Origin: a candidate division FCPU426 bacterium
GTDB taxonomy: Bacteria; Oederibacteriota; PGYV01; Palsa-1178
Assembly (NCBI GenBank): GCA_963840035.1
Contig: CAWIXE010000002.1
Location: 320,001 to 384,000 of the forward strand
Reading direction: 5' to 3'
DNA: 64,000 nt
Position 1 is the first letter of the stretch; each line of letters starts with the position of its first letter. This document shows, piece by piece, positions 34,371 to 53,075 of the stretch. The position numbers were made by a program, and so were the translations under genes. A model generated the notes under the pieces. That model did not search any database. It was not told the origin of the DNA and worked only from the letters and a program-made list of their open reading frames with translations.

Positions 34371-35135
34371 ATGAAAAAAACAGTGCTGATAATTGCGGCA
34401 ATCGCCGCGCTTTTTGCGTTTTCATTCACGGGGTGCAAAAGAAATCCGGTCATAGCGCCGGCTGATTTGCCTGCGCCCATTGCCGCCCCTGTTTATCCGA
34501 TGAATGTTATTATAGATGACTGTGACGACAATGATAATGTGACGGCCTGGGGTGGATATTGGTTTACATACGACGATAATAAACCGCCCAATTTCGGCAC
34601 GTCGACCATTGAGCCCAAAAACGGGGCGCTTTTTACAATGACTTTTGTAGGGCCTGACTGGAACAGCCTGGTTAACGGGCCCAATGTATATTGCGCGAGG
34701 TTTACCGGCGATGTAAAAAGGGGCGGCCCGACATCGTTTGCGTATCCGCTCATAGGCGTCGGCATAGGTTTATCGCCGATGGATGACAAGCAGAATTTCT
34801 ACACATATAGCGGCATCAGGTTCTGGGTTAAAAGGGGGCTTACGGATCAGATTATCAGTTACAGGTTAGCCCTTAAAAGCGCCAACAATCCTGATCCGGC
34901 ATTATATGATTTTTGGGGCATGACATTTTCCGCTCCTGCGGGAGTCTGGACGCAGATTAACATACCGTTTTCTTCCCCGTCATTCATGCAGAATTTCGGG
35001 CTGCCGCTTGATAAACAAACTTCGCTCAGCCAGGTAACAGGCATACAGATACAGACCAAAAACAGCCCGGATCCGGCGCCATACGTAACGCTTCACGCGG
35101 ACCTTTCCATAGACAAGATAGAACTGTACAGATAA
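34371..35135 (+). CDS. Lipoprotein with CBM11/CIA30-like domain
   Basis: Lipobox FTGC; IIDDCDDND....GGYWFTYDD...WTQINIPFS...IDKIELY, same module as in the GH8s. Confidence 0.78.
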   Translation: MKKTVLIIAAIAALFAFSFTGCKRNPVIAPADLPAPIAAPVYPMNVIIDDCDDNDNVTAWGGYWFTYDDNKPPNFGTSTIEPKNGALFTMTFVGPDWNSLVNGPNVYCARFTGDVKRGGPTSFAYPLIGVGIGLSPMDDKQNFYTYSGIRFWVKRGLTDQIISYRLALKSANNPDPALYDFWGMTFSAPAGVWTQINIPFSSPSFMQNFGLPLDKQTSLSQVTGIQIQTKNSPDPAPYVTLHADLSIDKIELYR

Positions 35136-35186
35136 AAAGGTGAGTAAAATATAATCTACACACTTATTTCAGGAGGTGGAAGGCAA

Positions 35187-36074
35187 ATGAAAAGATTTTT
35201 AAAGGAAGTAATGGTAATGGCTACGATTATGCTTTTAGTAACAGCTCTGATGGTGATAGGCTGCAGCAAGAAAAAAGCTATAGACCTGACTGCCGCTGAT
35301 ATCGGGCCCGCAGGTACAGCTACGAATTCGCCAATAGTAATTCCAAGCGCTACGCCTACTTGGACATACTCAGCCCCGAGAGTGTGGCTGGACAGGTGTG
35401 AAGACGGAAATAACCAGATAGAATTTACCGTTCCGTCAAGCCCGGGATACTGGTTTACATATGACGATAACGCACCGCCGGATAACGGAACGACCCTTGT
35501 AGTACCGTGGGGAGACCCGAAATTCATGACCGCCGGTCTTACGCCTACTCCTTTTTACATGCAGGCGCCGGGTGTCGGTATTGACGGAACTGGAACAAGT
35601 GCATACGCCGCAAGGATGACCGGTTATGTAAGGAATAACAATTCAACTCCTCCAGGCATGGCGTATGGTTTTGCGGGGATGGGATTTAACCTGACCGACC
35701 CTAAAGGCGCTTTCAGTGTAACATCAACGGCCGGAGTAGGCGGATATGTGGGTATTAAATTCTGGTACAGGGGAGCAGTAACAGGCGCAAGCGCACAGGC
35801 AGTTTACAGGCTCAAACTTGATGCTCCGGGGACTTACACTACCGCCGATGTGTATGGTTATCAGTTCAATGTCCCTGTGGATGATTCATGGACGCAGTTT
35901 GTTCATCCGTTCTCTGATTTTACCCAGGAAGGCTGGGGAGCTACGCCGCCCGTAACGCTTTTTAGCGTTTTGTCAAATCTTGTTGCTTTACAATGGCAGA
36001 CGGCGACAAAGGGAAGTTCGTCATCCACAGAAGGTTATTTTGAACTCTGGGTTGACAATATAGAACTGTACTAA
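35187..36074 (+). CDS. Lipoprotein with CBM11/CIA30-like domain
   Basis: Lipobox VIGC; DRCEDGNN...GYWFTYDD...PFSDFTQEGWG...WVDNIELY. Confidence 0.78.
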   Translation: MKRFLKEVMVMATIMLLVTALMVIGCSKKKAIDLTAADIGPAGTATNSPIVIPSATPTWTYSAPRVWLDRCEDGNNQIEFTVPSSPGYWFTYDDNAPPDNGTTLVVPWGDPKFMTAGLTPTPFYMQAPGVGIDGTGTSAYAARMTGYVRNNNSTPPGMAYGFAGMGFNLTDPKGAFSVTSTAGVGGYVGIKFWYRGAVTGASAQAVYRLKLDAPGTYTTADVYGYQFNVPVDDSWTQFVHPFSDFTQEGWGATPPVTLFSVLSNLVALQWQTATKGSSSSTEGYFELWVDNIELY

Positions 36075-36090
36075 AGTATTATTACGATAT

Positions 36091-36120
36091 CGCTGGGGGC
36101 GGATTCAACCGCCCCCAGCG
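36091..36120. repeat. GC-rich intercistronic stem-loop
   Basis: CGCTGGGGGCGG-ATTCAA-CCGCCCCCAGCG, no U tract. Confidence 0.75.
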
Positions 36121-36164
36121 GATTAAATGTACTAAGGACCATAAACTTTATGAGGTGATTTCTG

Positions 36165-36830
36165 GTGAGGAAAATTATTTCCATAACACTTTCAGCCATC
36201 ATATTAACAATATTTACTTCATGCGCGGGAGTTTTCGCGCTTAAAAACCCCAAATTAACGGGCGGAAAGATAGAAACCAATGCTTATAAGCCTACAAAAC
36301 CGCCGGTTATTTTTGATGATTTTGAAGCGGGTGTGGTTGTCGGCGCGTATTCGTACGCCAACGGCGCGGGCGGCGCGTCTGCCAAGTTAATGATAAGCGA
36401 CCCGGCAACGGATGTTCCTCACGGCGGTAAATACGCCGCCAAGTCGGTATTTGATTCAGGGACAAGCGCTGACTGGGGCTGCGGATTCGGGTGCCAGTCC
36501 ACATACGGCGGCGGGTTCATAGACGCTACCGGCAGGGAATACGTAAGCCTCTGGATAAAAGCGCCTGAAGGCGTGCCATATTATGTCTTTGTAAATGAAG
36601 CGGCCGCGAACGGCGCTGACGGGGAATTCTACAACGGCCCGCTGCGCAACGGAACGGGAAAGTGGACGTTGTATGAAGTGGCCATGGAAGATTTTATTAG
36701 GAATATTTATTCGGGAAACCAGACAGGAAACGGCTCCATAGACATGTGCGGGCTTGGTACCGTCGGAGTGCAGATAACAGGGGCTTCAGGCAAGGGCGAC
36801 TTTTTTATGGATGATATCTGGTTTAAGTAG
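36165..36830 (+). CDS. Lipoprotein with galactose-binding-like/CBM11-like domain
   Basis: Lipobox FTSC; FDDFE...WGCGFGC...ADGEFY...FMDDIWFK; GAGGTG RBS. Confidence 0.72.
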   Translation: MRKIISITLSAIILTIFTSCAGVFALKNPKLTGGKIETNAYKPTKPPVIFDDFEAGVVVGAYSYANGAGGASAKLMISDPATDVPHGGKYAAKSVFDSGTSADWGCGFGCQSTYGGGFIDATGREYVSLWIKAPEGVPYYVFVNEAAANGADGEFYNGPLRNGTGKWTLYEVAMEDFIRNIYSGNQTGNGSIDMCGLGTVGVQITGASGKGDFFMDDIWFK

Positions 36831-36834
36831 GGCA

Positions 36835-36923
36835 AATTTTCGATTTTCAATTTTGAATTTTCAATTAAGATCAAACGGGGTGTGGTGATTTAATTGAAAA
36901 TTGAAAATATAAAATTTCAAATT
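36835..36923. repeat. Heptamer-unit inverted repeat, copy 3
   Basis: AATTTTCGATTTTCAATTTTGAATTTTCAATTAA ... TTAATTGAAAATTGAAAATATAAAATTTCAAATT. Confidence 0.8.
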
Positions 36924-36938
36924 AAGTTGGAGGTTTTT

Positions 36939-37598
36939 GTGAAAAAAATATCAATAATAACAGCAATAATCGCCGCGCTTGTATTTACGTCATGCGCGGG
37001 CGTTATTTCTTTCAGGAATCCAAAGGCTGCTAAGGCCGCAAAAACATCGGGCGAAGTTAAAAAACTCGCGCCTGTAAAGTTTGAGGATTTTGAGAACGGC
37101 ACAATGGTCGGCGGCTACGGCTACGCAAATACCGCGGGCGGCGCTTCAGTGAAATATATTATCGGGGACCCGTCGGCGGATAAGGCGCATGGCGGACAGT
37201 ATTGCGCCAAGGCAAATTATGACACGGGCACAAACGGAGACTGGGGCTGCGGTTTCGGATGCCAGAGCTCATACGGCGCCGGTTATATAGACGCGTCAGA
37301 CAGGGAATACATATCGTTCTGGGCAAAACTTCCCGAGGGCGTGACTTTTTACGCATTTGTTAATGAAGCGGCTGCAAACGGAGGGGACGGCGAGTTTTAC
37401 AACGGGCCGTCACAGACAGGCGCCGGCAAATGGTACGAGTACCTCATACCGCTCGATGAATTTTTTAAGAACATATATTCCGGAAGCCAGATGGGCAATA
37501 ACCAGATGGATAAATCAGGCATCGGCACAGTAGGTTTCCAGGTAGGCGGAAACCAGGGCAAAGCCGCGTTTTTAGTTGACGATATCTGGTTTAAATAA
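36939..37598 (+). CDS. Lipoprotein, close paralogue of 36165-36830
   Basis: GGAGG RBS then GTG 36939; lipobox FTSC; DWGCGFGCQSSYG, FVNEAAANG, DDIWFK shared with upstream paralogue. Confidence 0.75.
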   Translation: MKKISIITAIIAALVFTSCAGVISFRNPKAAKAAKTSGEVKKLAPVKFEDFENGTMVGGYGYANTAGGASVKYIIGDPSADKAHGGQYCAKANYDTGTNGDWGCGFGCQSSYGAGYIDASDREYISFWAKLPEGVTFYAFVNEAAANGGDGEFYNGPSQTGAGKWYEYLIPLDEFFKNIYSGSQMGNNQMDKSGIGTVGFQVGGNQGKAAFLVDDIWFK

Positions 37599-37775: not shown

Positions 37776-37804
37776 TAATGCAGGTGAGGACACCTGGAGG
37801 AAGC

Positions 37805-40800
37805 ATGTACCGCAGACTCAAATTCGCAGCTTTATTCTTGTTTATCAGCAGCGCGGTTATTTCCGCCCCTGCCCCGATATCCGAACAAATCATAGTGGAC
37901 CAGATAGGCTACAGGCCTACAGCCGATAAGTGGCTGATGATTGCAGACCCCCAGACCGGCCAAAACAGCGCCATTACATACGTCCCCGGCGCAAATGTCC
38001 AGTTAAGGCGGGCTTCTGATGATGTCAGCGTCATGACAATTCCGCTCACAGCGTGGAACTCGGGCGCTACGCACACTCAGTCGGGAGATAAGGTGTGGCA
38101 GGGCGATTTTTCATCTTACACAACACCGGGCACTTACTATATTTACGACCCCACAAACGTTTATAAATCCTATAACTTTGATATTAAAGACGATGTGTAT
38201 AATTCCATTCTTCAGGCCTCTGTAAAATCATATCTTTATCAGCGCTGCGGCGTTGCGGTTAGCAGCGGCGTGTGGACGCACGCGGCCTGTCATGTGGCGA
38301 CACAAAGCGCAGCCCATCTTTACGACTCCGGCCTCGGTGGGGATCAGGGTGCCGGGACTGCCAGGGATATAACCGGCGGTTGGCACGACGCGGGAGATTA
38401 CAGAAAATACACTTCCTGGATGGCGCATGTTATCTGGGATATGGCTTATATGTGGGAGTGGAACCCTGCGGCTTTTTCCGACGCTGCCGTAATCCCGGAA
38501 TCAGGCAACGGGGTACCTGACATACTTGATGAAATGAAGCAGGAAATAGAATGGATGTATAAAATGCAGAGGCCTGACGGAGCGCTGTATTCCGGGGCAT
38601 TTGTTGTAAAAGGTGTAAATGGCACAAACGGAGGCGACGGAAATCCCGCGCTTGAGGACAGGCCATATTTTTACGCGAACTATTCTACGGCAGCTACAGC
38701 GTCAGGCGCGGTTGCGCTTGCGATAGGAGCCAGATTACTTTCATCATATCCCGGAGTATACGCCGCTGAGGCGGCGAAGTATGAGACAGCGGCAAAAAAT
38801 GCCTGGAATTTTCTCATGGCCAATACTGCAAACATAACTTATAACGCCACCGATATTGATAACGCCGACGCAAATATGGATGCGGGAGCGGACAACAGGC
38901 TGCGTTTCATGGCTGCGGTCGAGCTTTACAGGCTGACCGGAGGCGCAGCGTACAAGACATATATTGATGATAATTATACTAACGCCAATTTGAATGACGG
39001 TACGTATCATCCCATCAACAATGGAAGCTATTTACCGGGGGCCGCATCAGATTTTCAGAGGGCGCTGGTGGCGTATTGCCTTGCGCCGGGAGCCACCGCT
39101 TCAATTGTAACGACGATTAAGACATGCATAAACGCCGGGATAAACAATTACCAGTACGCCATGCGCAATGATGACCCTTATAAATGCGCCATGTGGGACG
39201 GTCATTACTGCTGGGGGTCCAACTCCCAGAAAAGCAGCGTGGGCGAACATCCTGCTTTGGGGAGTTAAGCTGAATGTTAACGCGGGTATGACAGTTACTT
39301 ATAATAAGCTTGCCGAGGAATACCTGCACTATTACCACGGAAGAAACCCTTTATCCTGGTGCTACCTTACCCAGTCGCAGTTATCAGGCGCGGACAAATC
39401 AATAACTGAAATTTTTCACGGGTGGTTCATGGACGGTACGGCGTTTGATACAAACCCGGCGCCGGGTATTTTAGCGGGAGGGCCAAACAGGGATTTTGCT
39501 CCAACGAGGTATACCGGGACAGCGGCATGCCCGGTTTACACTGTGGCCCCACCCCAGGGTGAGCCCCCTATGAAAGCGTATAAAAACTGGAACTCAGGCT
39601 GGGTCGGGGAACAGCCTGCCGGCTCAGGCTGCGGTTGGAGCGATGACTCATGGGAAGTAACTGAAAATTCCACCGGCTACCAGTCCCTTTATTGTTTTCT
39701 TGCGGCGGCTTTTGCGGGAAGTACCGGGCCTACGCCGACAGTAACAGTTTCACCTACTTACGCGGGGAGCCCTACAATCACGCCGACTATTACGCCAACT
39801 TTCACGCTTACACCGGTACCGCCATATTTGCTTATTTACGACGGAGATACCGCGCCGCACAGACTTGCCGACGGAACGGTAAACCATGACGCGGATACCA
39901 CAATGACGGAAGTTACAGGGGGAACAATCGGAAACGCCATGCTCAATACTTATCCGGCATCGGTTGATTACTGGGCACAGAGTGAATGGGTCCCGCCTTC
40001 GAAGGTTCCCATAGGCTCTAACACATACCTGGTGTTTGACATAAAGGAAAATTCAGGCACGGTTTCAGCGCTGCTGGCAAGGCTCCTTTGGTACTACGAC
40101 CCTGTTGACATTGCGGGCTATGTGCCGGGAGGGATAATAGATAATACCTGGAGGACCGCCAGAATACCCATTGTGGACATGCAGGCAAACACATTTACGA
40201 CAATTGATAGCATAATATTTATAAGCAATGCAAATGTGGCATACAGCGTATTAATAGATAACATCAGGCTTGAAGGCGCCGCGGCAACAGCCACTAATAC
40301 GCCGTCGAATACACCGGCTGCAAGCCAGACATATACGCGGACAATTTCATCGACACCCACAGGGACTTATACTCCCACTATTTCTGCTACAGCGACACAT
40401 ACAAGGACGGCTACGGGGACATCATCAGCCACGCCTGTAATTACATTTACTGATACACCATCATGGACTGCCACGGCGACCCGCACTATGACCATGACAG
40501 GGACATTTTCACCGACTCAGCCATTAACTTCCACTTGGACTCATACGCCGTCATGGACCGGGACGCCTACATTCACGCTGACTCTTACGGACACAGGCAC
40601 CCCGACCTCCACCGGCACCATCACCCCCACAATGACCGTTACGCAGACGCATTCGGCTTCACCGACTGTAACGGATTACGCGGGTACTCCCACGGATACT
40701 TACACGCCCACGAACTCGCCCACGGTCACGGTGTCGCCGACCATCACGATTACAAAGACACCCTGCGCCTGTTCGTCGTATTTTGGAAATACGGTCGTCG

Positions 40801-42383
40801 GCCTTGTCGCTTCCATGGACGAGTCGCCTTATTTTGATTCCAATAAGTTTACGCTGGCCCAGGATTCGGTGGTGCATTCGTTATCCGCCTATGTAGCGTC
40901 GACAACCGGCGGAAATATAAGGATGGCGCTGTACGCAAATTCAGGATGGGCTCCGCATGTTCCCACGAGCCTGCTTGTGGAATCACAGGAGCAGCCGTCG
41001 GTTGCGGGCTGGAATACCGTGCCCATACCGGAGATATTTCTTGCCGCCGGTGATTACTGGATAGCATGGGAAGTGCAGCCCGGGACCGTGATGCCATATA
41101 ATTTATATAGCATGTCGGGCATAGAAGCATGGAAGGACATTATATACGGGCCATTCCCGTCGAACGCACCGAGCGCAAACGTTGATAACTATATATTTAC
41201 GGTCAAGGCTGATTATTGCCCGGTCACATGCCCGCTCCCGCAGGCGACCGCTACCATAACACCGACTTATGTCCCGGCGTGCGCCTGTGCCGGGGATTTA
41301 GGAATATTTACGCCGGGCGCTTCATTATTGAGCCCGGTGGGGTTCATATCCTCGGTATTTTATCCGCTGAGCCAGGATGTAGCGGCACAGGCCATATCCT
41401 TATATGTGGCTTCCGGGAACGGGACCGCGCAGGCCGCGATATATTCCAACAGCCTGCCCGGCATGACAAAGGGAACGCCCAAAGACCTGATAATCGAATC
41501 TGCCCCGGCCGCAATCGCGCCCGGGTGGAACAGGATAGCGGTGCCCGAGGTATTGCTTACAGGCAATAATATTTATTGGCTTACATTCCAAATAACAGGC
41601 GGGGTTATATCATATGATGCGGGGCCGGCGGGATGCATGTATTATCTCGGCAACCCGTTCGGGACGTTCCCGGCAGACGTGTCATCCGGAACAGCCGCAA
41701 ATTATGATTTTTCCGTGCAGCTTAATTACTGCCCGCTGACATGCCCGGCAAGCCCTACAAATACGCCGACAGCGACTGCCGTGCTTTCTGATACGCAAAC
41801 CCCAATTGCAACTGAAACAAGCACGGCTGATTTGTCGCCGACGCAGACATCAACGCAGACCACGGCTGTTGAATCGCCGACAGTGACTATTACACAGACA
41901 ATACTTCCGTCATCAACAAATACGCCGCTGCCTTCGTCAACTAATACCCCGATTCCAACCGCGACATTTACTTTGACGGGGACTCCGACAAAAACCATAT
42001 CTCTGACTAACACGCCGGTAATTACAGCTACAAATACACCAACACAGACACCTGCGGCGGTTCCAACAAGTGATAACCTGGTCATAGACAGCATAAAACC
42101 ATATCCTAATCCTGGAAGCGCAGGGATAACTGATATTACGGTTGGATTTAACATATCGCGCGACTGTAAAAGGATTGAATTCATGATGTACACACAGTCT
42201 GCCAGGTTAATCAGGCAGTATAAAAGTGAATTGGGGTATCCTGCAGGGAACAGGGCTGTAATGATAAGCAGGTCAAATTTTGCCGGGTTGGCTTCAGGCA
42301 CCTATTATTTTTGCATTGAAGCCACCGACACTACCGGAAAAACAGCCAAGTCAAAAATAGACAAAATAATCCTTTTAAAGTAG
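37805..42383 (+). CDS. Secreted Ig-GH9 cellulase with CBM-like domain, Thr linkers, two Cys-flanked unknown domains and T9SS-like CTD; split by a 1-nt frameshift near 39230
   Basis: GGAGG RBS before ATG 37805; IIVDQIGY Ig domain, GGWHDAGDY, GVPDILDE; removing one A at 39230-39233 gives CWGSNSQKAAWANILL and joins the second ORF (HYYHGRNP, GILAGGPN, VTENS); PYPNP...KIDKIILLK. Confidence 0.82.
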
Positions 42384-42514
42384 GGCTTTCGTAATTTATT
42401 TCCTAAAAATAAAAACCTAATAAAATAAGGGCTTTTATTTGTTGAACCGGTTTTCATTATACAAAACGCAGTTGACAATGTTCTGAAAATACTATATATA
42501 TTAAGCAGAAAGAA

Positions 42515-42540
42515 CGAAACTATTTTAAACTAAAGTTGTC
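42515..42540 (+). promoter_or_regulatory. Putative ECF promoter
   Basis: CGAAAC-N15-TTGTC. Confidence 0.68.
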
Positions 42541-42611
42541 GAAAGCATAGAAGTTTTTTTTTGCCTACAAATTTAAATGTTTAAACAAACTCTAATTAAC
42601 AGGTGAATTTG

Positions 42612-45059
42612 ATGAAAAAAGTATTTTTAACGCTGATGCTGACAACAATAGCTTCGATAATACTTGGCTACGGCGGAACAGTGCCTACAGGGCTGCCAAA
42701 CGTATTTGGTTTCGGTTCCATAGACAAGCAGGATCCGTATGCGTCTGACATGCCAAACAGGTGGAAGGATACTTCCGGATGCTGGGATTACACATATGTT
42801 TACTTAACGCCGGGATGGCATAATTGCTGGACATACTGCGCAAACGGCCAGTTCGCGAAGGATGAAATGACATACTGGCAGGCAAAGAACATGATAGAGG
42901 TTTTTACTTTCTATTATCAGCCTTCAGGCGACGGCGCTACCATATGCAACTGGTATAATAATGCAACTAACATGAAGAAGTGGTTTGATGAGCTCACCAT
43001 ACTGTTTCAGGCCATAGCAACAACAGCCAATCCCGTGGCAATAGTGCACATAGAACCGGACCTTCTCGGGTTCATGCAGTCAACGGGGAAATCAGCTGTT
43101 TCCGTGGGGTCGTGCGGAAACGCCGATGTGGCGGGGCTGTCCAATAATCTCGCCGGCTGGCACGCAGGCATAATGAAGCTGCGCGATAAGTACGCGCCCG
43201 GAAAAGCCCTCATTGCGCATCATTACACGCACTGGGCCGCGGTGGATGATGTGTTCTCAAATAACGTCTCTGATGGGCAGATAGCAAACCACGTAACAGT
43301 TGTGGGGGATTTCATACTTAGCATGGAAGGCACCAGCCCGAAAGCCGACCTTATATTTTCAGACCCTTCAGACCGTGACGCGGACTGGTTTAGAAAAGTA
43401 AAGGGGACTTCGACCCGCTGGGCTGCGATGAATTTTACGGCAACATCCGGCGCCAGGAGCTGGGGTAAGGTGGCAAATGTCATCAACCTGATGTCAACAA
43501 AACTTAACAGGCGCTTCATGTTCTGGCAGATGCCCATAGGCAATACTTTTTATAAGACATGCGACAATACCAACGGCCACTTCAGGGATAACAGTGCCCA
43601 GGCCATGATACCTTCCAGCACATATGACGGTTCCTTGGGCGCTACTCCCGGCGACGCATACAGCGCTTCTGATACATCCAAAGGGCCGAAGTACTGGGCA
43701 AGTAAGGGTGTCATCGGGTGCCTTTTTGGCGAGGGCGGATACAACTGGGACCCGGACAGCGTGCCGGTAACGCATTTGAGGGACTATCATCCGACAGACA
43801 CCACTTATAACGGATCAAGTGACGCTTTTGGCGGGGGACCTGCTGAAAGCGTGTGGGGGACAGCAACTTCAAATTCGGCTGATAACGACGGCGGTTACAT
43901 AAGAAAAGCCGTGGCCAAATATTGCCTGACAGGGAAGACATCATTATCCGGAAGCGTATCTTCACCCACATTTACAAAGACAAACACGCCTGTGCCGCCG
44001 ACAGCCACATTTACAAAGACAAACACGCCGGTACCGCCGACAGCCACATTCACAAAGACAAACACGCCTGTGCCGCCGACAGCCACATTCACAAAGACAA
44101 ACACGCCGGTACCGCCGACTTCGACTTTCACATATACAATTACAGCTGTGCCGCCGACTGCCACATTTACAAAAACAAATACCCCTGTGGCGCCGACAGC
44201 CACAAAAACAGATACTACGCTGCCTACGGAAACATGGACACCTCAGCCGCCGGCCGCGACGAAGACCTTTACAGCCACTAAAACTAACAGCCCGCTGCCT
44301 ACGGAAACATGGACGCCGCAGCCGCCAACTTCCACAAGCACGTCGACCAGGACGCGGACCGCCACTGTAACAATGACGGTCACGGCCCCTCCGACCGCCA
44401 CCTTTACTTTCACTCCGGTATATTCCATAACTGCATCGCCGACAAATCCGCCGGCAGGTTCTACGTTTACATTTACCGCGACCAGGACAAATACGCCGCT
44501 TCCGACAAATACCATGACGCCGACCCGCACCTGGACTGCGTCGCCGCTGCCTACGGCCACATTTACAATTACCTTCTCGCCCACAAACCCTCCGGCAGGG
44601 TCAAGCCCGACATTTACCCGGACAATCCCGCCGACGCCCGCAAATACGGCAACATCTACGCGTACGGCGGTGATTCCATCGGCAACAGCAACGCCGACCA
44701 CTTATATTCCGGCCGCGACGGCGACATTTACAGCAACTTCTGATGCGGGGCATGGGGAACTTCTCATTGATAAAATATCGTCATCACCGTGCACGGGTGA
44801 TTATTTAAATATTAATTTTAATATTAACAAACGCTGTACCGCCATTACTGTCCGGGTTTATACGATGTCTTACAGGCTGGCAAGAAAAGTCGAATTTTCC
44901 GGCACATACGCCGCCGGGCGAAATACCGTGCAGCTGACAAGGAAATACCTGAAAGGACTTGGAAGGGGATCGTATTATTTTGTGATAGACGCGGTAGATT
45001 TTGAGAGAAAAGTAAAGTCTTCGAAAATAAGCGCTTTTATAATGGTCAATCAATACTGA
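42612..45059 (+). CDS. Secreted putative glycoside hydrolase of unclassified family (GH6-like IEPD motif) with Thr/Pro linker and divergent CTD
   Basis: Signal peptide; aromatic-rich N-terminal domain with IVHIEPDLLGF and DRDAD; linker; CTD-like VRVYT...RL...GLGRGSYYF. Confidence 0.62.
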   Translation: MKKVFLTLMLTTIASIILGYGGTVPTGLPNVFGFGSIDKQDPYASDMPNRWKDTSGCWDYTYVYLTPGWHNCWTYCANGQFAKDEMTYWQAKNMIEVFTFYYQPSGDGATICNWYNNATNMKKWFDELTILFQAIATTANPVAIVHIEPDLLGFMQSTGKSAVSVGSCGNADVAGLSNNLAGWHAGIMKLRDKYAPGKALIAHHYTHWAAVDDVFSNNVSDGQIANHVTVVGDFILSMEGTSPKADLIFSDPSDRDADWFRKVKGTSTRWAAMNFTATSGARSWGKVANVINLMSTKLNRRFMFWQMPIGNTFYKTCDNTNGHFRDNSAQAMIPSSTYDGSLGATPGDAYSASDTSKGPKYWASKGVIGCLFGEGGYNWDPDSVPVTHLRDYHPTDTTYNGSSDAFGGGPAESVWGTATSNSADNDGGYIRKAVAKYCLTGKTSLSGSVSSPTFTKTNTPVPPTATFTKTNTPVPPTATFTKTNTPVPPTATFTKTNTPVPPTSTFTYTITAVPPTATFTKTNTPVAPTATKTDTTLPTETWTPQPPAATKTFTATKTNSPLPTETWTPQPPTSTSTSTRTRTATVTMTVTAPPTATFTFTPVYSITASPTNPPAGSTFTFTATRTNTPLPTNTMTPTRTWTASPLPTATFTITFSPTNPPAGSSPTFTRTIPPTPANTATSTRTAVIPSATATPTTYIPAATATFTATSDAGHGELLIDKISSSPCTGDYLNINFNINKRCTAITVRVYTMSYRLARKVEFSGTYAAGRNTVQLTRKYLKGLGRGSYYFVIDAVDFERKVKSSKISAFIMVNQY
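43968..44123 (+). repeat. Tandem repeat, 4 x 39 bp ([13 protein letters not shown])
   Basis: ACATT(T/C)ACAAAGACAAACACGCC(T/G)GT(G/A)CCGCCGACAGCC units within the linker. Confidence 0.9.
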
Positions 45060-45277: not shown

Positions 45278-45492
45278 GGAAACCTCCGGGTATGTAAGTT
45301 TACTTAATTTAGCATAAGATTTAAAAAATGACAATTATAAAATCGCCGGCAGTACCTAAAGTCAGTTTTTACGAAAAACAAACTAAAACGTATATACGAA
45401 AAGCTTCGAAAATACGGGTAAAATTAGGAAACCCCTTTTTAAAAAACGATTTTGCAACAAGTTGCAAAGGTTACAATATACCTACAATCACC

Positions 45493-45521
45493 TTGACTAT
45501 TGCCATATTTAGTGGTAAAAT
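45493..45521 (+). promoter_or_regulatory. Putative sigma70 promoter
   Basis: TTGACT-N17-TAAAAT with TG extension. Confidence 0.6.
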
Positions 45522-45570
45522 CTCAAAAGGGTGTATTATATATAGAAAAAACCGAAGCGTGAGGAAACTG

Positions 45571-47643
45571 ATGCAATCAGGCAAAATGCCTATTAGAAAT
45601 GCCGATAACCCTATAGTAAAAACCACACTATTTATAATCAATATCATGTTTATTTGTATTTTTATTTTTACGAAACCGTTGTTTTCGTCAAATTTCGGTA
45701 CAAATACCGCGGAATTTTTGAAAATAAATCCGGAAGCAGCTCCCGCAGGCATGGGAGAGGCATATATTGCCGTTGCTGAAGGCACTAACGCGCTTCAGTA
45801 TAATGCCGCAGGACTGGCCTTTCTCGATAAAAGCGAAATAACCGCGACTCAGCTCCTTTGGTTTAATAACATAAACATGACCCATGTTGCATATGGCCAG
45901 CCGCTTGCTTATGGATTTGGCCTGGGCGCGAGCATACTATGGATAAATTTCGGAAGTTTTGATTCCACCGGAGGCGTGGCCTCGCCGATAGATATCCAGA
46001 ACGGAGTTTTTAACATCGGCGCGGGCAAAAGCATCGGCGATAATATCCACCTCGGAGTGAACCTGAGGGGGCTCTACGAGAATTTTATGAGCAGTTCGTC
46101 TTTTGGCTTCTCAGCAGACGCCGGCGCGCTTTTTTACCTCGGTTCAAGAAATTTTACGCTGGGATTATCCGCGAAGAACATGGGTTTTTTAACAGGCACA
46201 AATGATTCGCTTCCCGTGGAAGCCGGTATCGGGCTTGGTTTCAGGCTCTTTAACGGTTCTTTCGATTTTTTAAATGTGGATATCGATTACAGGAAAATTT
46301 TAAATACTGACAACCAGTACCTGGGCGCCGGGCTTGAGTATTATATCGCGCAGGTAGCAGCGCTCCGGCTGGGCTTCAGGTATAATAACGCGATGGAAGC
46401 AACAAAAATATCATTCTCGGACCTTTCCAGGCTGGTGCTTTTTTCCGCGGGCGCCGGCATAAATATTAATGATTTTATTTCCGCCGACTATTCCTTCACC
46501 CCCATGGGAGACCTGGGCTATGTGCACAGGGTCACGCTCAAGATGAAGTTCGGCGAATCAATTTATGAAAGAAGGCTCTCGGAGAAAAATGTGAAGGTCG
46601 AGCCGAAAGCCATAGAAGTGCCGCAGGTAACTGTCCAGGATGGAAATATAAAAAGTGTTTCTTTTAAGCCCAATGTCCCGGACCAGAACGTAAAGGAATG
46701 GACACTCGCTATCAAGACCTCTGACGGAAAGATAGTCAAGTCATTCTCCGGTATCGGTGAAGTGCCAAAGACACTGAATTGGGACGGCACGGACGCGTTT
46801 GGCAGGATATCAAAGGCTGATACCAATTTCATATTTGACTTTAAAGCCAAGAATGATGAAGGCCAGATAATAAAGACCATAGGACACATAGTCCAGCCGA
46901 AAAAGTTTGATTTCTTGAAGGACGAGGACAGGCGTTTTGTCCCGCTTAAAGGCGAGGAAATGCTTGTGGCTCCCGTGACGCTGCTGGTGTCGCCCAACGC
47001 CGAGGAAAGAAAACAGGTTCCGTTCCTGATGGTAAATAAAAAGATTAAGAAGGTAAAGGACTGGGAGTTCGCGGTATATGACACAAACAAGGCGCTGCTT
47101 AAAAAATTCACGGGGCAGGACATGATCCCGTCATACCTCGTATGGGACGGAAAGGATACATACGGCAATTATGTAAATGACCTTAAGACCTGCCAGTATG
47201 TGCTTTCAATAAACGGTACAGACGGTAAGAAAGCGGAGATCAGGGACAGACAGGTGGTAAGGGACGCGTTTGTAATATCGGCTAAAACAAGAAAATTGAA
47301 AATGGCAAAGAGGATATATTTTGAGCCGAATACCGTGGATATTGATCCGGAGATGCTGCCGAAGCTTGACGAACTTGCCGCGGAAATTTCGCAGTATAAG
47401 AATGTTCAGATATACATACAGGGCCACTCGAGCAGGGAAGGGGAAAACGACTATAATATCAAGCTCTCACAGGAAAGGGCAAAGACAGTCCTGCGATACC
47501 TTGTGGAAAAGTATAAAATTTCGCCGCTGTCGGTCACGACCGTAGGATACGGTTCTGCTATCCCTATAGACCAAAGCGATACCGAAGAGGCAAAAATGAG
47601 GAACAGAAGGGTTGAAATAATAATGATCGGTGAAAAACAATGA
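45571..47643 (+). CDS. PorV-like barrel fused to two FlgD-like Ig domains and an OmpA/Pal peptidoglycan-binding domain
   Basis: FLKINPEAAPAGMGEAY...YNAAGLA; LGYVHRVTL; two W.L.I...VK.F.G....L.WDG.D..G units; IQGHS...NIKLSQERA...GYG...NRRVEI; start uncertain (45571 or 45586). Confidence 0.82.
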   Translation: MQSGKMPIRNADNPIVKTTLFIINIMFICIFIFTKPLFSSNFGTNTAEFLKINPEAAPAGMGEAYIAVAEGTNALQYNAAGLAFLDKSEITATQLLWFNNINMTHVAYGQPLAYGFGLGASILWINFGSFDSTGGVASPIDIQNGVFNIGAGKSIGDNIHLGVNLRGLYENFMSSSSFGFSADAGALFYLGSRNFTLGLSAKNMGFLTGTNDSLPVEAGIGLGFRLFNGSFDFLNVDIDYRKILNTDNQYLGAGLEYYIAQVAALRLGFRYNNAMEATKISFSDLSRLVLFSAGAGININDFISADYSFTPMGDLGYVHRVTLKMKFGESIYERRLSEKNVKVEPKAIEVPQVTVQDGNIKSVSFKPNVPDQNVKEWTLAIKTSDGKIVKSFSGIGEVPKTLNWDGTDAFGRISKADTNFIFDFKAKNDEGQIIKTIGHIVQPKKFDFLKDEDRRFVPLKGEEMLVAPVTLLVSPNAEERKQVPFLMVNKKIKKVKDWEFAVYDTNKALLKKFTGQDMIPSYLVWDGKDTYGNYVNDLKTCQYVLSINGTDGKKAEIRDRQVVRDAFVISAKTRKLKMAKRIYFEPNTVDIDPEMLPKLDELAAEISQYKNVQIYIQGHSSREGENDYNIKLSQERAKTVLRYLVEKYKISPLSVTTVGYGSAIPIDQSDTEEAKMRNRRVEIIMIGEKQ

Positions 47644-48731
47644 TGAGACAGTATAAAATAGCCGTGGCCGCGCTGTTTGCGCTTTTACTTATGTCGGCAT
47701 GCACCCAGATGAAAGAGGCAGGCGGTGATACGGCCGAGCATATTTTTAACATGGCAAATGAGGCCATCGCGCGCGGGGATGAAGCCGTAGCCATAGATTT
47801 GTTTTACAAACTTAATCAGGATTACGGGGCTTTTAAGAAGTACCGTGCGGATGTGTTATACAGGCTGGGTACGCTTTTATACAAGACTGAGCGTTACGAT
47901 GAATCCGAGAAAGTGCTATCCATGTTTGTTTCCAAGTTCCAGCAGGATGCGAGGCTGAAAAAAGCCTACGAAATGCTCCTTTACATTTATATGCAGGAGA
48001 CACATGACGAAGCTAAGGCTCAGAAAGTCCGCGACCAGTATGCCGGGAAATTTGGCAATAACCCCACATTAAAGCAGATAGACAAGACCATGACAGTACT
48101 CTCGGGCGAGACGCAGGAAGCTTCAGCCCTGCTGGCGCTTGACGCGGTAAACATCGGCATCATCGGTTCTGCCGCGGTTAACGGTTATGACAGGGAATTC
48201 TACCCGGTCAGGAATTATATACTTAAAAGCGTCAGGTCGCCGGACGGCAAATTCACGGTTGAAAAAAAGAAAAAGGCCGGCAATTATTATCTGTATATAG
48301 ACCAGCTGCCTGCCAAAGGCCAGCCCATACGCATCGATAAAAGTTCAGGCGGATACGCGCCGCAGTGGTCGTGGGATTCAAAATATGTGGTTTTCACATC
48401 CATGGACTGGGCGACTGACGAGCGCAGGGTCAGAATATATGACGTCAAAAAGAAAGTGGCCAGGGACCTCTTCAGCGCGCCGGGGCTTGAGCCGCTGCTT
48501 TGCATCTCGCCGGATTCTTCAAAGATAATTTTTACATATAACGGAAAGCTGTGGATTATGAACAGCAACGGCAACGGAGTATCGCTGCTTTCAAAGTCGA
48601 TGTCCGCTAAAAAAATGTGGATGATTGCCTGGGCAAGGGAAGGCGGCAGGATTATTTATTCAAATAAATCCGATAAGTCGCTTTATTATGAGTGCAGGCT
48701 TGGACGCAGGGAAATAGAGGCTATAAAATAA
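47640..48731 (+). CDS. Lipoprotein with TPR region and TolB/PD40-like beta-propeller
   Basis: Lipobox MSAC; BamD-like TPR helices; SPDG, PQWSWDS, SPDSSKI and AWAREG repeats. Confidence 0.75.
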   Translation: MMRQYKIAVAALFALLLMSACTQMKEAGGDTAEHIFNMANEAIARGDEAVAIDLFYKLNQDYGAFKKYRADVLYRLGTLLYKTERYDESEKVLSMFVSKFQQDARLKKAYEMLLYIYMQETHDEAKAQKVRDQYAGKFGNNPTLKQIDKTMTVLSGETQEASALLALDAVNIGIIGSAAVNGYDREFYPVRNYILKSVRSPDGKFTVEKKKKAGNYYLYIDQLPAKGQPIRIDKSSGGYAPQWSWDSKYVVFTSMDWATDERRVRIYDVKKKVARDLFSAPGLEPLLCISPDSSKIIFTYNGKLWIMNSNGNGVSLLSKSMSAKKMWMIAWAREGGRIIYSNKSDKSLYYECRLGRREIEAIK

Positions 48732-48832
48732 GGATGTTTTTATACGGCCGGATTATGATTCCGGCGCGTCTAATAGGCAGCGGGAAAACTAAGCCTTAAC
48801 CCGAGGTATTACATCACAACACGGAGGTTTTT

Positions 48833-50686
48833 ATGAAAAAGATATTTGGATTAATGCTGGCCATGCTGGCGCTTGTAACACTGAATCCCGGTGTGTTTGC
48901 GTCTGTCGATGAGTATTCCAAAGCCGTCCAGCTGGACGGGAATAACGTGGTTGCCAGGTTTAATCTGGGGTTGGCGTACTATCAGGAGCAGAAATATGAT
49001 GACGCGGTAGAGCCTCTGCGCAAGTCGCTTGAAATAAACAGGGAAGACAAGTCCAGCCACGCGAAAGTTGATTTTCAGGCGGCGCAGCTGCTGGGAATAA
49101 TATTTTTTGAAAAGAACAATATTGATGAGGCCATAAACTTTTTTAAAAAAGCGGGGGAGATAAATCCTGCGGAAGGAAATAATTACTACTATATGGGGCT
49201 TGCCTATAAAAAATCCGGCAGAACGGATGACGCACTGAAATCATTCATTAAGGCCCTTGAAAACGGGGCGGACGATACCGCGGAGAATAATTTCCGTATA
49301 GGGCAGATATACTATGAAAAAAAGGAATATGGCAGCGCGATCGAATACTTTGAGAAAGTTACCGCGAAAAAACCTGACTTCGCCGACGCCAGGGAATACC
49401 TGGGCGATATATACGACAGGCGGGGTATGGCTGATAAGGCCGTGGAAAATTACACGCGCGTTGTCAGGGTCAACCCGGATAATATCCACGCGCAGTACCA
49501 GCTGGGGCTGAATTATTTCAAACAGAAAGAATATGACAAGATGATCGCGGCGTATAAAAAAACCATAAGCATAGACCCGAATTTCGCGGACGCCCATTAT
49601 AACCTGGGCATGGCATATTATTACAGAAACATGTATGAGGACGCCATTGCCGAGTTCCAGACGGCCATTAAACTTAACCCGAACGACGCTTCCTCTTACT
49701 CGCTTCTCGCGCAGACAAAGACCACGGCTTATGAGTTTCATAAGAATAAAGGGTCCACATTTTTAACGGAAGAAGATTATTTGCAGGCAAGGGATGAATT
49801 TCAGATGGCCCTCAATGTAAAACCGGGGGATTCCGACACACAGAAGTTCCTTGACAGGACAAATGAGTCGATAAGGTCGCTGATACCGGTGAAGCTTAAG
49901 GCGGCAAAAGACAACTTTGAGTCAAAAGATTACAGCAACGCGTACAATAACTGGGATTTTGTGCTTAAGGCCCAGCCGGATAACGGCGAGGCAAAAGAAG
50001 GGATGAGTAAAATTGAAAAGAATCTGTCGGAGTTGATAGCGGCAAGGGCTGAAAAAGCCGAGAAATTCGCATCTGAGGGCAAGCTTGCCGAATCAGTGGC
50101 GGAGTACGCTGATATTTTAAAGTTAGCCCCCAAGTCAAAGCAGGCGGCCTTAACCGCAAGAATGTCCGCTTTAATGACGAAGCTGCGCACGAAGGTAACC
50201 GCGCTGCTGACGGACGCGGACGCGGCATACGCGAAAAAATCCTACGCCAAGGCCTTAAACAAATATACTGAAATACTCCGTTACGAAGCAAATAACAGCC
50301 GGGCATTAAACGGCATTACTAAAGTAAACGCAAAAATTGACGCGGATAAGGAAAAGTACCTGGCTATAGCCAAGCAGAACAAGGCAAGCAACAGCGCAAA
50401 AGCCGTGGAGTATTATAAAAAGGTTGTACAGATGGACCCGAACAACGAAGAGGCGAACAAGGCCATCGTGAACATAACGGGAAAGCAGTCTTCCGTGTCG
50501 CTGGACGCGCAGAAGATAAAGTCCCTTTACTATGAGGGCGTGGACAAATATGTCAACGGCGAGGTAGAAACGGCGATTAAGGTTTGGAAAAAAGTCCTTG
50601 AAATGGACCCGAACCACGTGGAAGCAAGGAAGAACATTAAAAGGGCCGAAGAAAAACTATTGGCAATCAAAAGCCTGAGCAGGTGA
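48833..50686 (+). CDS. Exported multi-TPR protein
   Basis: Signal peptide; many TPRs (AHYNLGMAYY, AQYQLGLNY); GGAGG RBS. Confidence 0.88.
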   Translation: MKKIFGLMLAMLALVTLNPGVFASVDEYSKAVQLDGNNVVARFNLGLAYYQEQKYDDAVEPLRKSLEINREDKSSHAKVDFQAAQLLGIIFFEKNNIDEAINFFKKAGEINPAEGNNYYYMGLAYKKSGRTDDALKSFIKALENGADDTAENNFRIGQIYYEKKEYGSAIEYFEKVTAKKPDFADAREYLGDIYDRRGMADKAVENYTRVVRVNPDNIHAQYQLGLNYFKQKEYDKMIAAYKKTISIDPNFADAHYNLGMAYYYRNMYEDAIAEFQTAIKLNPNDASSYSLLAQTKTTAYEFHKNKGSTFLTEEDYLQARDEFQMALNVKPGDSDTQKFLDRTNESIRSLIPVKLKAAKDNFESKDYSNAYNNWDFVLKAQPDNGEAKEGMSKIEKNLSELIAARAEKAEKFASEGKLAESVAEYADILKLAPKSKQAALTARMSALMTKLRTKVTALLTDADAAYAKKSYAKALNKYTEILRYEANNSRALNGITKVNAKIDADKEKYLAIAKQNKASNSAKAVEYYKKVVQMDPNNEEANKAIVNITGKQSSVSLDAQKIKSLYYEGVDKYVNGEVETAIKVWKKVLEMDPNHVEARKNIKRAEEKLLAIKSLSR

Positions 50687-50689
50687 CGG

Positions 50690-51706
50690 ATGAAAGTAAC
50701 TATTTATGATGTGGCAAAAAAAGCCGGGGTTTCCATATCTACGGCTTCAAAAGCGTTAAATGACAGGAAAGACGTGGGTGATGCCACGAAAGACAGGATA
50801 CGTATTATCGCTAAGGAACTAAGCTATGAGCCTTCGCATTTCGCGCGGGCCCTGGCCATGCGTAAGACCGGAAATATTGGCGTTATTTCAGTGAGGTATT
50901 ACCAGGCTCCGGTTATAACAAACCCTTTTTATTCAAAGATAATTGAAGGCATAGAAGAACAGCTGGTTAACGCGAACTTAAATCTGGTTACAAATGTCTT
51001 AAGGAAAGACCAGGTTGAGGCGCTTGAGCTGCCAAAGATGGTTAAGGATAAATCGGTTGACGGAATGATCCTTCTGGGACACATGCCGGAGAATTTTGTG
51101 AAAATGGTAATGGACAAATCACTGCCGGCCGTGATGGTGGATAATTTCATAAAGGGCGCGCCGGTAAGCTCCATGATAATTGATAATTTTGACGGCGCGT
51201 ATAAGGCTGTGACATACCTTCTGGAGACGGGCCATAAAAGGATAGCTTACCTTTCAGGGCCGCGTGAACGTTACAGCTTCAGCCAGAGGGCTGAAGGTTA
51301 CAGGAAGGCGCTTACGGACAAAGGCGTGAAAGTGGATGAGAAACTCATGGTGTTTGACGACGCCGAGAGCGAAGGGTACGCCTGGATGAGAACCGTCATG
51401 GAAGGGCCGAACAGGCCCGATGCGATATTCGCGTGCAATGACGTTAACGCCATCCTGGCCATCAATATGCTGAAGGAAAAAGGCTTAAGGGTTCCCGAAG
51501 ATGTAAGCGTGATTGGATTTGACAATCTGGAGCTGACGGAGCATTTTATTCCGTCCATTTCCACAGTTGATATTAATAAAGAGGCCATGGGCATAAAATC
51601 CGCGGACCTTCTTATAGATATAATTAATACCAAGAAAAACAGGATCGAAAATGTGGTTTTTCCCACAAGCCTTGTAATCAGGAATTCCGTGGCAAAACGG
51701 TCCTGA
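50690..51706 (+). CDS. LacI-family transcriptional regulator
   Basis: TIYDVAKKAGVSISTAS HTH; RVPEDVSVIGFDN. Confidence 0.95.
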   Translation: MKVTIYDVAKKAGVSISTASKALNDRKDVGDATKDRIRIIAKELSYEPSHFARALAMRKTGNIGVISVRYYQAPVITNPFYSKIIEGIEEQLVNANLNLVTNVLRKDQVEALELPKMVKDKSVDGMILLGHMPENFVKMVMDKSLPAVMVDNFIKGAPVSSMIIDNFDGAYKAVTYLLETGHKRIAYLSGPRERYSFSQRAEGYRKALTDKGVKVDEKLMVFDDAESEGYAWMRTVMEGPNRPDAIFACNDVNAILAINMLKEKGLRVPEDVSVIGFDNLELTEHFIPSISTVDINKEAMGIKSADLLIDIINTKKNRIENVVFPTSLVIRNSVAKRS

Positions 51707-51751
51707 TAAACCAATTTTATGAGCCGGCGTATGCCGGCAACCCGAGGAAAT

Positions 51752-52975: not shown

Positions 52976-53049
52976 AGCTTTAAGTTTTAAGATGACTGAG
53001 GGTTTTGTATATCTTAAAACTTCAAACTAAAAACTAAAAACTAAAAACT
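52969..53049. repeat. Heptamer-unit inverted repeat (AGTTTTA / TAAAACT type)
   Basis: AGTTTGA AGCTTTA AGTTTTA AGAT ... ATCT TAAAACT TCAAACT AAAAACT AAAAACT AAAAACT. Confidence 0.72.
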
Positions 53050-53075
53050 GGACATCTCGGTTTTCAAAGGCATAT

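Follow-up and report, generated by a model that had tools for sequence, protein, structure and literature searches.

A putative secreted glycoside hydrolase of an unclassified family in a cellulolytic candidate lineage

The gene, its layout and its promoter-like site

We have analyzed a stretch of 64,000 nucleotides of bacterial DNA (the window), within which the open reading frame at 42612-45059 encodes a protein with an unclassified N-terminal domain. The elements of the gene and the conserved residues of the domain are summarized in Table 1. The original prediction described a signal peptide, a linker and a C-terminal domain laid out as in neighboring GH9 proteins, and this is what we find. 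The N-terminus is signal-like, Thr, Pro and Ser make up 59% of the linker, and the C-terminal domain is matched with E = 5e-18 by an HMM built on five neighboring GH8/GH9 tails, from which the protein itself was left out. The same HMM matches 34 ORFs across the genome, and it ties the protein to others with weak Por_Secre_tail/FlgD_ig matches, as for cargo of a T9SS. SprA- and PorV-like genes lie inside the window. The module shared with the GH9 proteins is also present on the GH18 of the same genome. No CBM was found between the domain and the tail, and a search of the genome for paralogs of the domain was negative.

The domain is rich in aromatic residues, as had been noted. Trp makes up 3.8% of it, a content that exceeds 99% of the 1,391 genome ORFs longer than 300 aa, and for Trp and Tyr together the value exceeds 95.5% of these ORFs. 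The two motifs that had been singled out are both there, IVHIEPDLLGF as residues 144-154 (positions 43041-43073) and DRDAD as residues 254-258 (positions 43371-43385).

The gene is preceded by an ECF-sigma promoter-like site, which was scored with a weight matrix whose training set consisted of 10 other intergenic sites. It ranks 9th of 2,627 genes, where the pattern used for collecting the training sites was itself partly modelled on the 42516-42543 site. A site lies upstream of all 18 orthologs examined, compared with 1 of 107 neighboring genes. The expectation that the GH9 genes share the motif holds for GH9a and GH9b; the window contains a third GH9, at 37778, and this one is outside the top 45 genes by the matrix. 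Across the genome the site marks four GH9 genes, a GH44(-BNR repeat protein) gene, a GH26(-GH44) gene and, weakly, one GH8. It was not found upstream of the GH16/GH64, GH18, PL11 and GH129 genes, nor before three GH5 genes, where operon-internal genes would be without a site anyway. A subtilase gene and uncharacterized genes are also preceded by a site. The conserved regulon narrows the candidate substrates of the protein.

Table 1. Positions of the gene, its promoter-like site and the conserved residues of its domain (counts from an alignment of 279 domains)
Feature	Position in window	Strand	Remarks
ECF-sigma promoter-like site	42516..42543	+	GAAAC-N17-GTCGAA; also at GH9, GH44 and GH26 genes
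Whole ORF, 815 aa (stop included)	42612..45059	+	ATG at 42612, stop at 45059
Signal-peptide-like N-terminus, residues 1-21	42612..42674	+	judged by eye; ortholog N-termini
Unclassified domain, residues 22-448 (427 aa)	42675..43955	+	predicted (beta/alpha)8 barrel
Tyr101, end of strand 3	42912..42914	+	Tyr in 270/279; aligns with GH6 Tyr169-type residue
Glu148-Pro149-Asp150, after strand 4	43053..43061	+	Asp150 279/279, Glu148 278/279; Asp150 likely general acid
Trp208, after strand 5	43233..43235	+	276/279; aligns with Trp of GH6 Y-x-D-A-G-H-x-x-W
Asp251-x-x-Asp254-Arg-Asp256, after strand 6	43362..43379	+	candidate base cluster; acidic 267/279, Asp 275/279, Asp 276/279
Trp305-Gln306, end of strand 7	43524..43529	+	Gln 278/279; register of clan GH-A nucleophile Glu
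His323-x-x-Asp326-Asn327 loop, after strand 7	43578..43592	+	His 269/279, Asp 272/279
Asp426 of D-G-G motif, after strand 8	43887..43889	+	Asp 269/279, Glu 5/279
Repetitive Thr/Pro/Ser-rich linker, residues 447-716	43950..44759	+	
T9SS-type C-terminal sorting domain	44760..45056	+	common to 33 other genome ORFs

The family and its genomic context

The N-terminal domain had been said to match no nameable family, and database searches agree. Pfam (2025) gave no match for the protein or for 16 aligned members of its family, NCBIfam (June 2026) returned unrelated noise only (E ≥ 0.012), and among PDB sequences (2026) there were no matches at E ≤ 10 with the protein and nothing relevant with two profiles. 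A family profile recovers 2,311 clusters at 50% identity, named 'hypothetical' almost everywhere. Judged by sequence, this appears to be a large, unannotated bacterial family that is unclassified by Pfam, NCBIfam and PDB sequences. It ranges over the cellulolytic candidate lineage and soil Actinomycetota, Chloroflexota, Acidobacteriota and Myxococcota, and its cultured carriers include some Streptomyces, Variovorax and Ralstonia. The closest named homolog is a hypothetical protein of Ca. Goldbacteria with 46% identity. In the literature searched, outside subscription journals and CAZy, we found no paper describing the family.

Within the order the gene is found in 19 of 23 genomes, mostly as a conserved single copy, and GH9 in 23 of 23. 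CBM-type modules are carried by 9 of 139 homologs, and SLH and CWB2 anchors by 5 of 139. One member is fused to a GH5 with three CBM2, and one to a GH18 chitinase.

Outside the order the surroundings are different in character. A single GH was present among 121 neighbors at 36 loci, and none among 103 neighbors at 35 loci of a second set; the neighbors picked numbered 133 and 130, of which 121 and 103 were scanned, and the picking of ORFs in GC-rich loci was heuristic. GH9 was present in none of five carrier genomes outside the order, and no conserved gene neighborhood was found there. Several of these loci adjoin glycosyltransferases, and some neighbors are SpoIID, NlpC/P60 and glycosyltransferases. 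Carriers in other phyla are without a cellulase context, and this counts against the function we propose below.

Predicted fold and catalytic residues

Two AlphaFold models, with pLDDT of 90.3 and 96.9, each contain eight barrel strands as assigned by DSSP, i.e. the complete (beta/alpha)8 barrel of clan GH-A. In structural comparison using VIA the highest-scoring matches were to glycosidases, including GH5 3wfl (Z 19.1, rmsd 3.4, 273 aligned), GH5 1rh9 (Z 18.7, rmsd 3.9, 298 aligned) and GH26 2bv9 (Z 18.7, rmsd 3.8, 263 aligned). The last is also the top Foldseek match of a compact member (E 1.4e-7, TM 0.54/0.66), and GH26 provides the nearest named Atlas clusters (0.83-0.85), which is a lead only. 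GH6 chains have the highest identities among the Foldseek matches (15-17% over about 248 columns), but they match partially with a query TM of 0.29-0.40, and the three VIA top-50 tables have no GH6 entry among the matches listed. GH18 chains occur at lower Foldseek ranks; in two VIA top 50s no GH18, GH20 or GH85 entry was recognized among the matches listed. The fold is predicted to be an eight-stranded TIM barrel closest to GH5 and GH26, and not the seven-stranded distorted barrel of GH6.

The conserved acids and aromatics come after the C-termini of the predicted strands. Seven or more acidic positions hardly vary between distant phyla, and there are conserved His and Arg residues near the acids. 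Asp391, Asp396, Asp424 and Asn311 were considered as core catalytic residues and rejected because the compact subfamily lacks them.

It had been suggested that the IEPD sequence recalls the acid motif of GH6, and that the protein is a distant GH6-like cellulase. GH6 is the best of four home-built family profiles, scoring 36-39 against the family compared with 16-20 for GH26, GH5 and GH53. The match is confined to strands 3-4, where Asp150 aligns with the catalytic acid of E-P-D and, in a weak alignment, Tyr101 with the Tyr of Y-x-L/I-P-x-R-D-C. According to an excerpt of PMC6091422 the Tyr169-type residue puckers the −1 sugar. When EPD is masked the scores of the two main subfamilies fall to 21-23, i.e. 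to background, and block shuffles of these subfamilies reach 38.1 compared with 39.2 observed. Two sequences form a distant subfamily, which is joined to the family at E = 1.5e-35. It scores 51.9 (P = 90%), where the best of 40 block shuffles reaches 37.4, and falls to 24.5 with both motifs masked. With hhalign in global mode none of the families could be usefully aligned. The profile match to GH6 is weak and motif-dependent.

Other GH6 features are not shared. Of 270 members, only 5 have Asp or Glu at the position of the Asp175-type base, Tyr+6; the protein itself has Asp107 there, and 12 of 18 orthologs read YY[T/Y]PY. DRDAD was tried as the counterpart of the GH6 P-x-R-D-C loop and rejected on strand order. 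It follows strand 6, and P-x-R-D-C follows the strand preceding EPD, so that the two are not positional homologs. What survives of the suggestion is an unclassified glycosidase-like family with the EPD Asp and the Tyr in GH6 registers. With eight predicted strands, GH5, GH26 and GH53 as the best structural matches and no conserved base, the family does not appear to be a member of GH6.

The lack of GH48 and canonical GH6 noted in the window extends further. PF01341 was not found in the 98%-complete genome nor in 40 relatives, in a search that was positive in 20 of 201 control actinomycete genomes, and neither was PF02011, for which no positive control rang. This would suit a divergent GH6 that supplies processive cellobiohydrolase activity to a cellulolytic lineage with otherwise neither GH6 nor GH48. 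The mostly single-copy conservation, the GH6-like registers and the Foldseek identities fit such a role, and the cleft could be roofed by loops that are inserted after strands 7 and 8 in a lineage-specific manner. Yet the eight predicted strands, the low TM to GH6, the unconserved base, and the lack of both a PF01341 match and a CBM make it highly doubtful.

Profile homology to clan GH-A is at background, 16-20 compared with 33-90 among GH5, GH26 and GH53 controls; two GH5 loci (G093, G133), which come from unpublished genomes, are not part of the control profile. In a forced alignment with the GH26 profile the acid/base Glu is matched by Asp150 and the nucleophile Glu by Gln306. With E = 0.093 this alignment is not significant, and the registers are therefore provisional; Glu148, two residues before Asp150, could be the acid/base. 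The position five residues before Gln306 is occupied by Pro in 152 of the 279 members, by Arg in 82 and by Lys in 16, which agrees with the P-x4-E found at strand 7 in the GH5/GH26 controls. Strand 7 (domain numbering 280-286) has no Glu. A retaining GH26-like mannanase or lichenase would need Glu148 (or Asp150) as acid/base and a nucleophile moved to Asp254, Asp256 or Asp326. The structural match to 2bv9, the Atlas clusters, the retention of Glu148 and the ECF site shared with GH26 and GH44 genes are consistent with this, and the strand-6 D-x4-D fits the GH26 D-x-x-G-x-D-x-Y. However, the family scores 18-20 against the GH26 profile where GH26-GH5 scores 51, most members have Leu, Ser or Ala in place of the Tyr that comes after the strand-6 Asp in GH26, and strand 7 ends in Gln. 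We regard this as unlikely.

The missing strand-7 nucleophile could have other meanings. GH18, GH20 and GH85 enzymes employ substrate-assisted catalysis, with an acid pair and no enzyme nucleophile. The Glu148/Asp150 x-x-acid pair might act in this manner on N-acetylated glycans such as chitin, peptidoglycan or exopolysaccharide, and the GH18 fusion, the cell-surface anchors, the SpoIID and NlpC/P60 neighbors and the lower-ranking GH18 chains point the same way. But the GH18 gene of this genome is without an ECF site (score −7.7) whereas our gene has one, and we think this activity quite unlikely. Alternatively Gln at the nucleophile position, a classic inactivating change, together with the conserved His and Arg could indicate a non-hydrolase. 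The protein might then be a pseudoenzyme that binds glycans, or it might use a clan GH-A barrel as a transglycosylase or phosphorylase, where GH112 provides a precedent for a phosphorylase with a clan-A-type barrel. The number of nearly invariant acids is probably more than a binding module usually needs, and the phosphorylase version is disfavored because of the likely extracellular location, so that a non-hydrolase seems improbable.

Proposed function and comparison with known systems

The reading we prefer, with a probability of about 45%, is that the protein is a likely secreted enzyme from a large unclassified family of glycoside hydrolases, with a predicted closed eight-stranded barrel, that cuts beta-1,4-linked plant glycans and is likely inverting. 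An ECF sigma factor would co-induce the gene with those of GH9, GH44/GH74 and GH26, and the C-terminal domain would direct the protein into the T9SS-like machinery, whose genes (SprA, PorV) lie close by. The glycan chain may bind across the aromatic residues Trp69, Trp73, Tyr101, Trp208, Trp270 and Trp305, where Asp150 could protonate the glycosidic oxygen like the acid of GH6. Since the nucleophile position of clan GH-A is Gln306, water would attack directly, and the residue activating it may be Asp254 or Asp256 of the strand-6 loop, or else Asp326 or Asp426. We favor endo cleavage of beta-1,4-glucan, xyloglucan or mannan in soluble or amorphous form, rather than processive attack on crystalline cellulose.

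If active, the family would be a new one among the glycosidases, combining a TIM barrel with a novel set of catalytic residues. A bolder version, which we consider rather unlikely, makes the family a closed-barrel sister group of GH6, preserving the step in which the nucleophile of a clan GH-A barrel disappeared through a Glu-to-Gln change and an Asp took over as the acid, and makes the protein the main chain-depolymerizing cellulase here in place of GH6 and GH48. The family offers a direct test of how the inverting chemistry of GH6 relates to clan GH-A, with Asp150, Glu148, Gln306 and Asp254/256 defined as targets for single mutants.

The cellulase systems of Goldbacteria described by Doud et al. 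(PMC7031533) are similar in their content of GH5, GH8, GH9, GH44 and CBM11. In the portion of that source available, including 30 of the 36 Goldbacteria rows of supplement 4, only recognized GH and CBM genes are given and the present family is not named; annotation-driven cellulase screens such as this would miss it.

Phosphorylases of GH112 have lost the nucleophile. They are placed in clan GH-A, and show that a clan-A-type barrel can work by a different mechanism (PMC7896129, in excerpt). They are not among the structural matches listed, and our protein differs in carrying export signals and in that no phosphate site was identified.

GH26 (PF02156; CtLic26A 2BV9, CfMan26A 2BVT) has the same complete (beta/alpha)8 barrel, with Z 17.4-18.7, and the strand-6 D-x4-D and strand-7 P-x4 registers. 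It differs in that the acid/base and nucleophile positions are Asp and Gln in our family, in provisional registers, with 7-13% identity and a profile score at background. GH5, GH53, GH35 and GH42 of clan GH-A rank at the top of the VIA comparison, with Z 16-19 for alignments of 255-310 residues, but with 5-13% identity and without retention of the two-glutamate strand-4/strand-7 machinery (PMC4697909, in excerpt). With GH6 (PF01341; TrCel6A, TfCel6A 1TML, mgCel6A 6FAO) the family shares a strand-helix-strand unit in which the Tyr and the E-P-D acid are identically ordered and spaced. Both have a Trp following the next strand, and neither has a strand-7-type nucleophile. The family differs from GH6 in having eight predicted strands rather than the seven described in the excerpted text of PMC5968413, in lacking the conserved Asp175-type base loop and a Pfam match, and in possessing additional invariant D-R-D, W-Q-x-P-x-G, H-x-x-D-N and D-G-G motifs.

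The candidate protein and its promoter

Judged by eye, the candidate protein begins with a basic and then hydrophobic N-terminus. There follow a 427-residue domain, a linker in which Thr, Pro and Ser make up 59%, and a tail of ~99 residues. The tail matches an HMM of five neighbouring GH8 and GH9 tails (E = 5e-18), so that the predicted layout of signal, linker and C-terminal domain is upheld; the motifs IVHIEPDLLGF and DRDAD are both present. The domain gave no match in Pfam or in a PDB sequence search and nothing meaningful in NCBIfam, as expected of one said to match no nameable family, and no paralog was found in the genome.

Genome-wide, 34 ORFs match the tail HMM. The 28 outside the window are mostly carbohydrate-active, including GH5, GH8, GH9, GH16, GH18, GH26, GH44, GH64, GH116 and GH129 proteins, two lyases and an esterase. 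Since several tail-bearing proteins have weak Por_Secre_tail or FlgD_ig matches, and the window encodes SprA-like and PorV-like genes, we infer that the candidate would be exported by a type IX-like system. The region 3' of the candidate (45328-61356), with its PorV-OmpA fusion, TPR proteins, LacI, O-antigen ligase, GT9 and SprA-like genes, has the same gene order in roughly half of the relatives compared, and may be a T9SS-like locus outside Bacteroidota.

The ECF-sigma promoter-like site of the candidate ranks 9 among 2,627 genes, using a weight matrix trained on 10 other intergenic sites, and is the top site outside the training set. Such a site precedes the orthologs in 18 of 18 cases (from 19 relatives with a match), even without synteny, but only 1 of 107 other genes of the same loci. 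Among tail-bearing genes it is found before four GH9 genes, bearing out the proposal of a shared motif, and before a GH44 (then a BNR-repeat protein), a GH26 (then a GH44), a subtilase, an unknown protein and, weakly, a GH8. Within the tail-bearing set no site was found before the GH16/GH64, GH18, PL11, GH129 or three GH5 genes, although some genes without a site may be operon-internal; one GH16 has a borderline site (rank 41).

A sigma70-like TTGACA-N17-TATATA, seen by eye directly 5' of the ECF site (42472-42500), suggests dual control of the candidate. An ECF sigma factor and then an anti-sigma factor (zf-HC2, membrane helix) are encoded at 10761-12420, with their own ECF-like site (rank 16). 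The anti-sigma C-terminal domain resembles T9SS-type tails (FlgD_ig/CHU_C; tail HMM E = 4e-6), and could couple the regulon to secretion. Elsewhere in the genome (G000:C2:1208270-1220243, locus L036) an ECF site accompanies each of three large secreted proteins that are related to one another (ranks 3, 5 and 18).

The GH9 gene at 37778-42383 is split by a frameshift: one frame covers PF00759 positions 1-331, and positions 348-416 lie in the following frame. Its counterpart in the relative G002 is intact in one frame, and the split is either a sequencing error or a pseudogene. Residues 218-380 of the GH9 ORF at 39168-42383 form an unannotated beta-sandwich-like module, possibly a new CBM, common to this and another GH9-associated ORF (G000:C2:196569), a GH5 and the GH18, and also present on 5/18 candidate orthologs. 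Two tandem GH8 proteins (12569-21360) look near-identical over ~800 N-terminal residues, through either recent duplication or gene conversion, and then diverge. The cluster at 28792-37598, syntenic in the relative G004, has two outer-membrane-like proteins without a Pfam match, then CBM9-like and CBM11/CIA30-like lipoprotein-type proteins; it is possibly a non-SusCD glycan uptake system.

Distribution of the family

The closest homologs have 44-50% identity; those named are hypothetical proteins of Ca. Goldbacteria and 'Spirochaetia'. The host probably belongs to the Goldbacteria lineage, because its complement of GH5/8/9/44 and CBM11 agrees with that described for Goldbacteria (PMC7031533). 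The genes tested in the Goldbacteria screen were those with recognised domains (PMC7031533; 30/36 rows of supplement 4). Of the 23 genomes from the order, 19 carry the candidate gene, mostly as a single copy, and all 23 carry GH9; the candidate gene was not found in 17 genomes from other orders of the phylum.

A family profile search returned 2,311 clusters at E ≤ 0.001, the weakest of which may include linker matches; 795 of the clusters pass E ≤ 1e-30. In GTDB genomes, 471 relatives were confirmed by a pattern scan, and the top 79 come mostly from Gaiellales, Chloroflexota and Acidobacteriota. A compact subfamily is, where named, from Polyangiaceae/Myxococcales, and cultured Streptomyces, Ralstonia wenshanensis and Variovorax also carry members. 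Functional names among members go no further than 'RICIN domain-containing' or 'MYXO-CTERM'. In 139 homologs scanned (of the top 150) there was no GH match on the domain; nine have CBM-type modules and five have SLH or CWB2 anchors. Two long relatives are fusions, one with CBM2 and GH5, the other with CBM2 and GH18. No description of the family was found in the literature, mostly titles and abstracts; CAZy and dbCAN lay outside the comparison, and a recent CAZy family number is possible.

Predicted fold and conserved positions

AlphaFold predicts eight barrel strands for the candidate domain (pLDDT 90.3, pTM 0.93) and for a compact member (pLDDT 96.9). Structure comparison by VIA with 48,161 chains gave glycosidases throughout the top 50, at 5-13% identity, from families that we take to be clan GH-A. 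The candidate domain matched GH5 1rh9 (Z 18.7, rmsd 3.9, 298 aligned), and the compact member GH5 3wfl (Z 19.1) and GH26 2bv9 (Z 18.7). The proposed Foldseek comparison did recover GH6 chains, but only as poorer or partial matches: GH53 came first for the candidate domain, with GH6 from rank 5, and GH26 for the compact member, with GH6 over ~248 columns (TM 0.34-0.37, identity 12-17%).

The residues conserved among 279 trimmed domains come after the ends of the strands.

Positions of the candidate features (residues numbered in the 815-aa protein from the ATG at 42612; numbering of the isolated domain, P0001, is 21 lower)
Feature	Position	Detail
Candidate ORF	42612-45059	815 aa from ATG
ECF site GAAAC-N17-GTCGAA	42516-42543	upstream of candidate
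Conserved residue	Tyr101	270/279
Conserved residue	Glu148	278/279
Conserved residue	Asp150	279/279
Conserved residue	Trp208	276/279
Conserved residue	Asp/Glu251	267/279
Conserved residue	Asp254	275/279
Conserved residue	Asp256	276/279
Conserved residue	Trp305	278/279
Conserved residue	Gln306	278/279
Conserved residue	His323	269/279
Conserved residue	Asp326	272/279
Conserved residue	Asp426	269/279

Clan GH-A enzymes are described as having an acid/base Glu on strand 4 and a nucleophile Glu on strand 7 (PMC4697909), whereas strand 7 of the candidate domain has no Glu. In a forced alignment with the GH26 profile, non-significant at E = 0.093, the nucleophile falls on Gln306 and the acid/base on Asp150; the P-x4-E register is consistent with this position of Gln306. 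These registers make catalysis of the classical clan A type unlikely, and the model points to a TIM-barrel glycosidase whose catalytic set is unusual.

Proposed activity and relation to GH6

Neither GH6 nor GH48 was found in 41 genomes (with a positive control for the GH6 search only), in agreement with their reported absence from the window. Comparison profiles of GH6 (29 sequences), GH26 (23), GH5 (22) and GH53 (8) were made with sequences taken from genome loci. The best match of the family is GH6, scoring 35.9 and 39.2 against 16-20 for the others; known clan pairs score 33-90. The match extends from strand 3 through strand 4: EPD falls on the GH6 EPD, and Tyr101 on the Tyr found six positions ahead of the GH6 base. 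The catalytic acid of TrCel6A is Asp221 and its proposed base Asp175, with Tyr169 puckering the -1 sugar (PMC6091422). Counting against the match, masking EPD lowers the score to 21-23, and block shuffles (n = 25) reach 38.1; with a GH6 HMM 76/281 domains exceed 5 bits, and only four after masking. Against GH6, a distant subfamily of two sequences, in which Y-N-I-P follows strand 3, reaches 51.9 (P = 90%, E = 1.4e-6), exceeding all 40 shuffles (maximum 37.4), and retains 34.7-37.0 with either motif masked and 24.5 with both. Homology of the strand 3-4 segment with GH6 is plausible from these alignments, at roughly even odds.

Several weak matches to PF01341, with E between 1e-14 and 1e-30, lie in the actinomycete genomes G090, G190 and G216 (loci L134, L135, L136, L141, L142 and L143). 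These divergent GH6-like proteins might help to bridge GH6 and the candidate family.

The reading that agrees with most of the observations is an inverting hydrolase. Asp150 would serve as the acid, whichever of the GH6 and GH26 registers is used, and the base would be supplied by the D-R-D loop of strand 6 or by Asp326/Asp426, with no enzyme nucleophile. The candidate is very probably an active glycoside-cleaving enzyme. The regulon points to beta-1,4-glycans as substrate in the source organism, and we somewhat favour a plant beta-1,4-glycan. The protein has no CBM. None of five carrier genomes outside the phylum has GH9, and neighbours of family members include one GH among 121 proteins and none among another 103; glycosyltransferases adjoin a few family loci. 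The GH9-less carriers and GH-poor neighbourhoods count against a family-wide cellulase role, and substrates may differ between subfamilies. For the full statement, a likely secreted eight-stranded-barrel glycoside hydrolase, likely inverting and acting on plant beta-1,4-glycans, we estimate a probability of about 0.45.

The original prediction of a distant GH6-like cellulase stands in so far as GH6 is the best profile with EPD on EPD, but membership of GH6 fails. The GH6 barrel is described as seven-stranded (PMC5968413), whereas both our models are eight-stranded, and an acidic residue at the GH6 base position is present in just 5/270 members of the candidate family.
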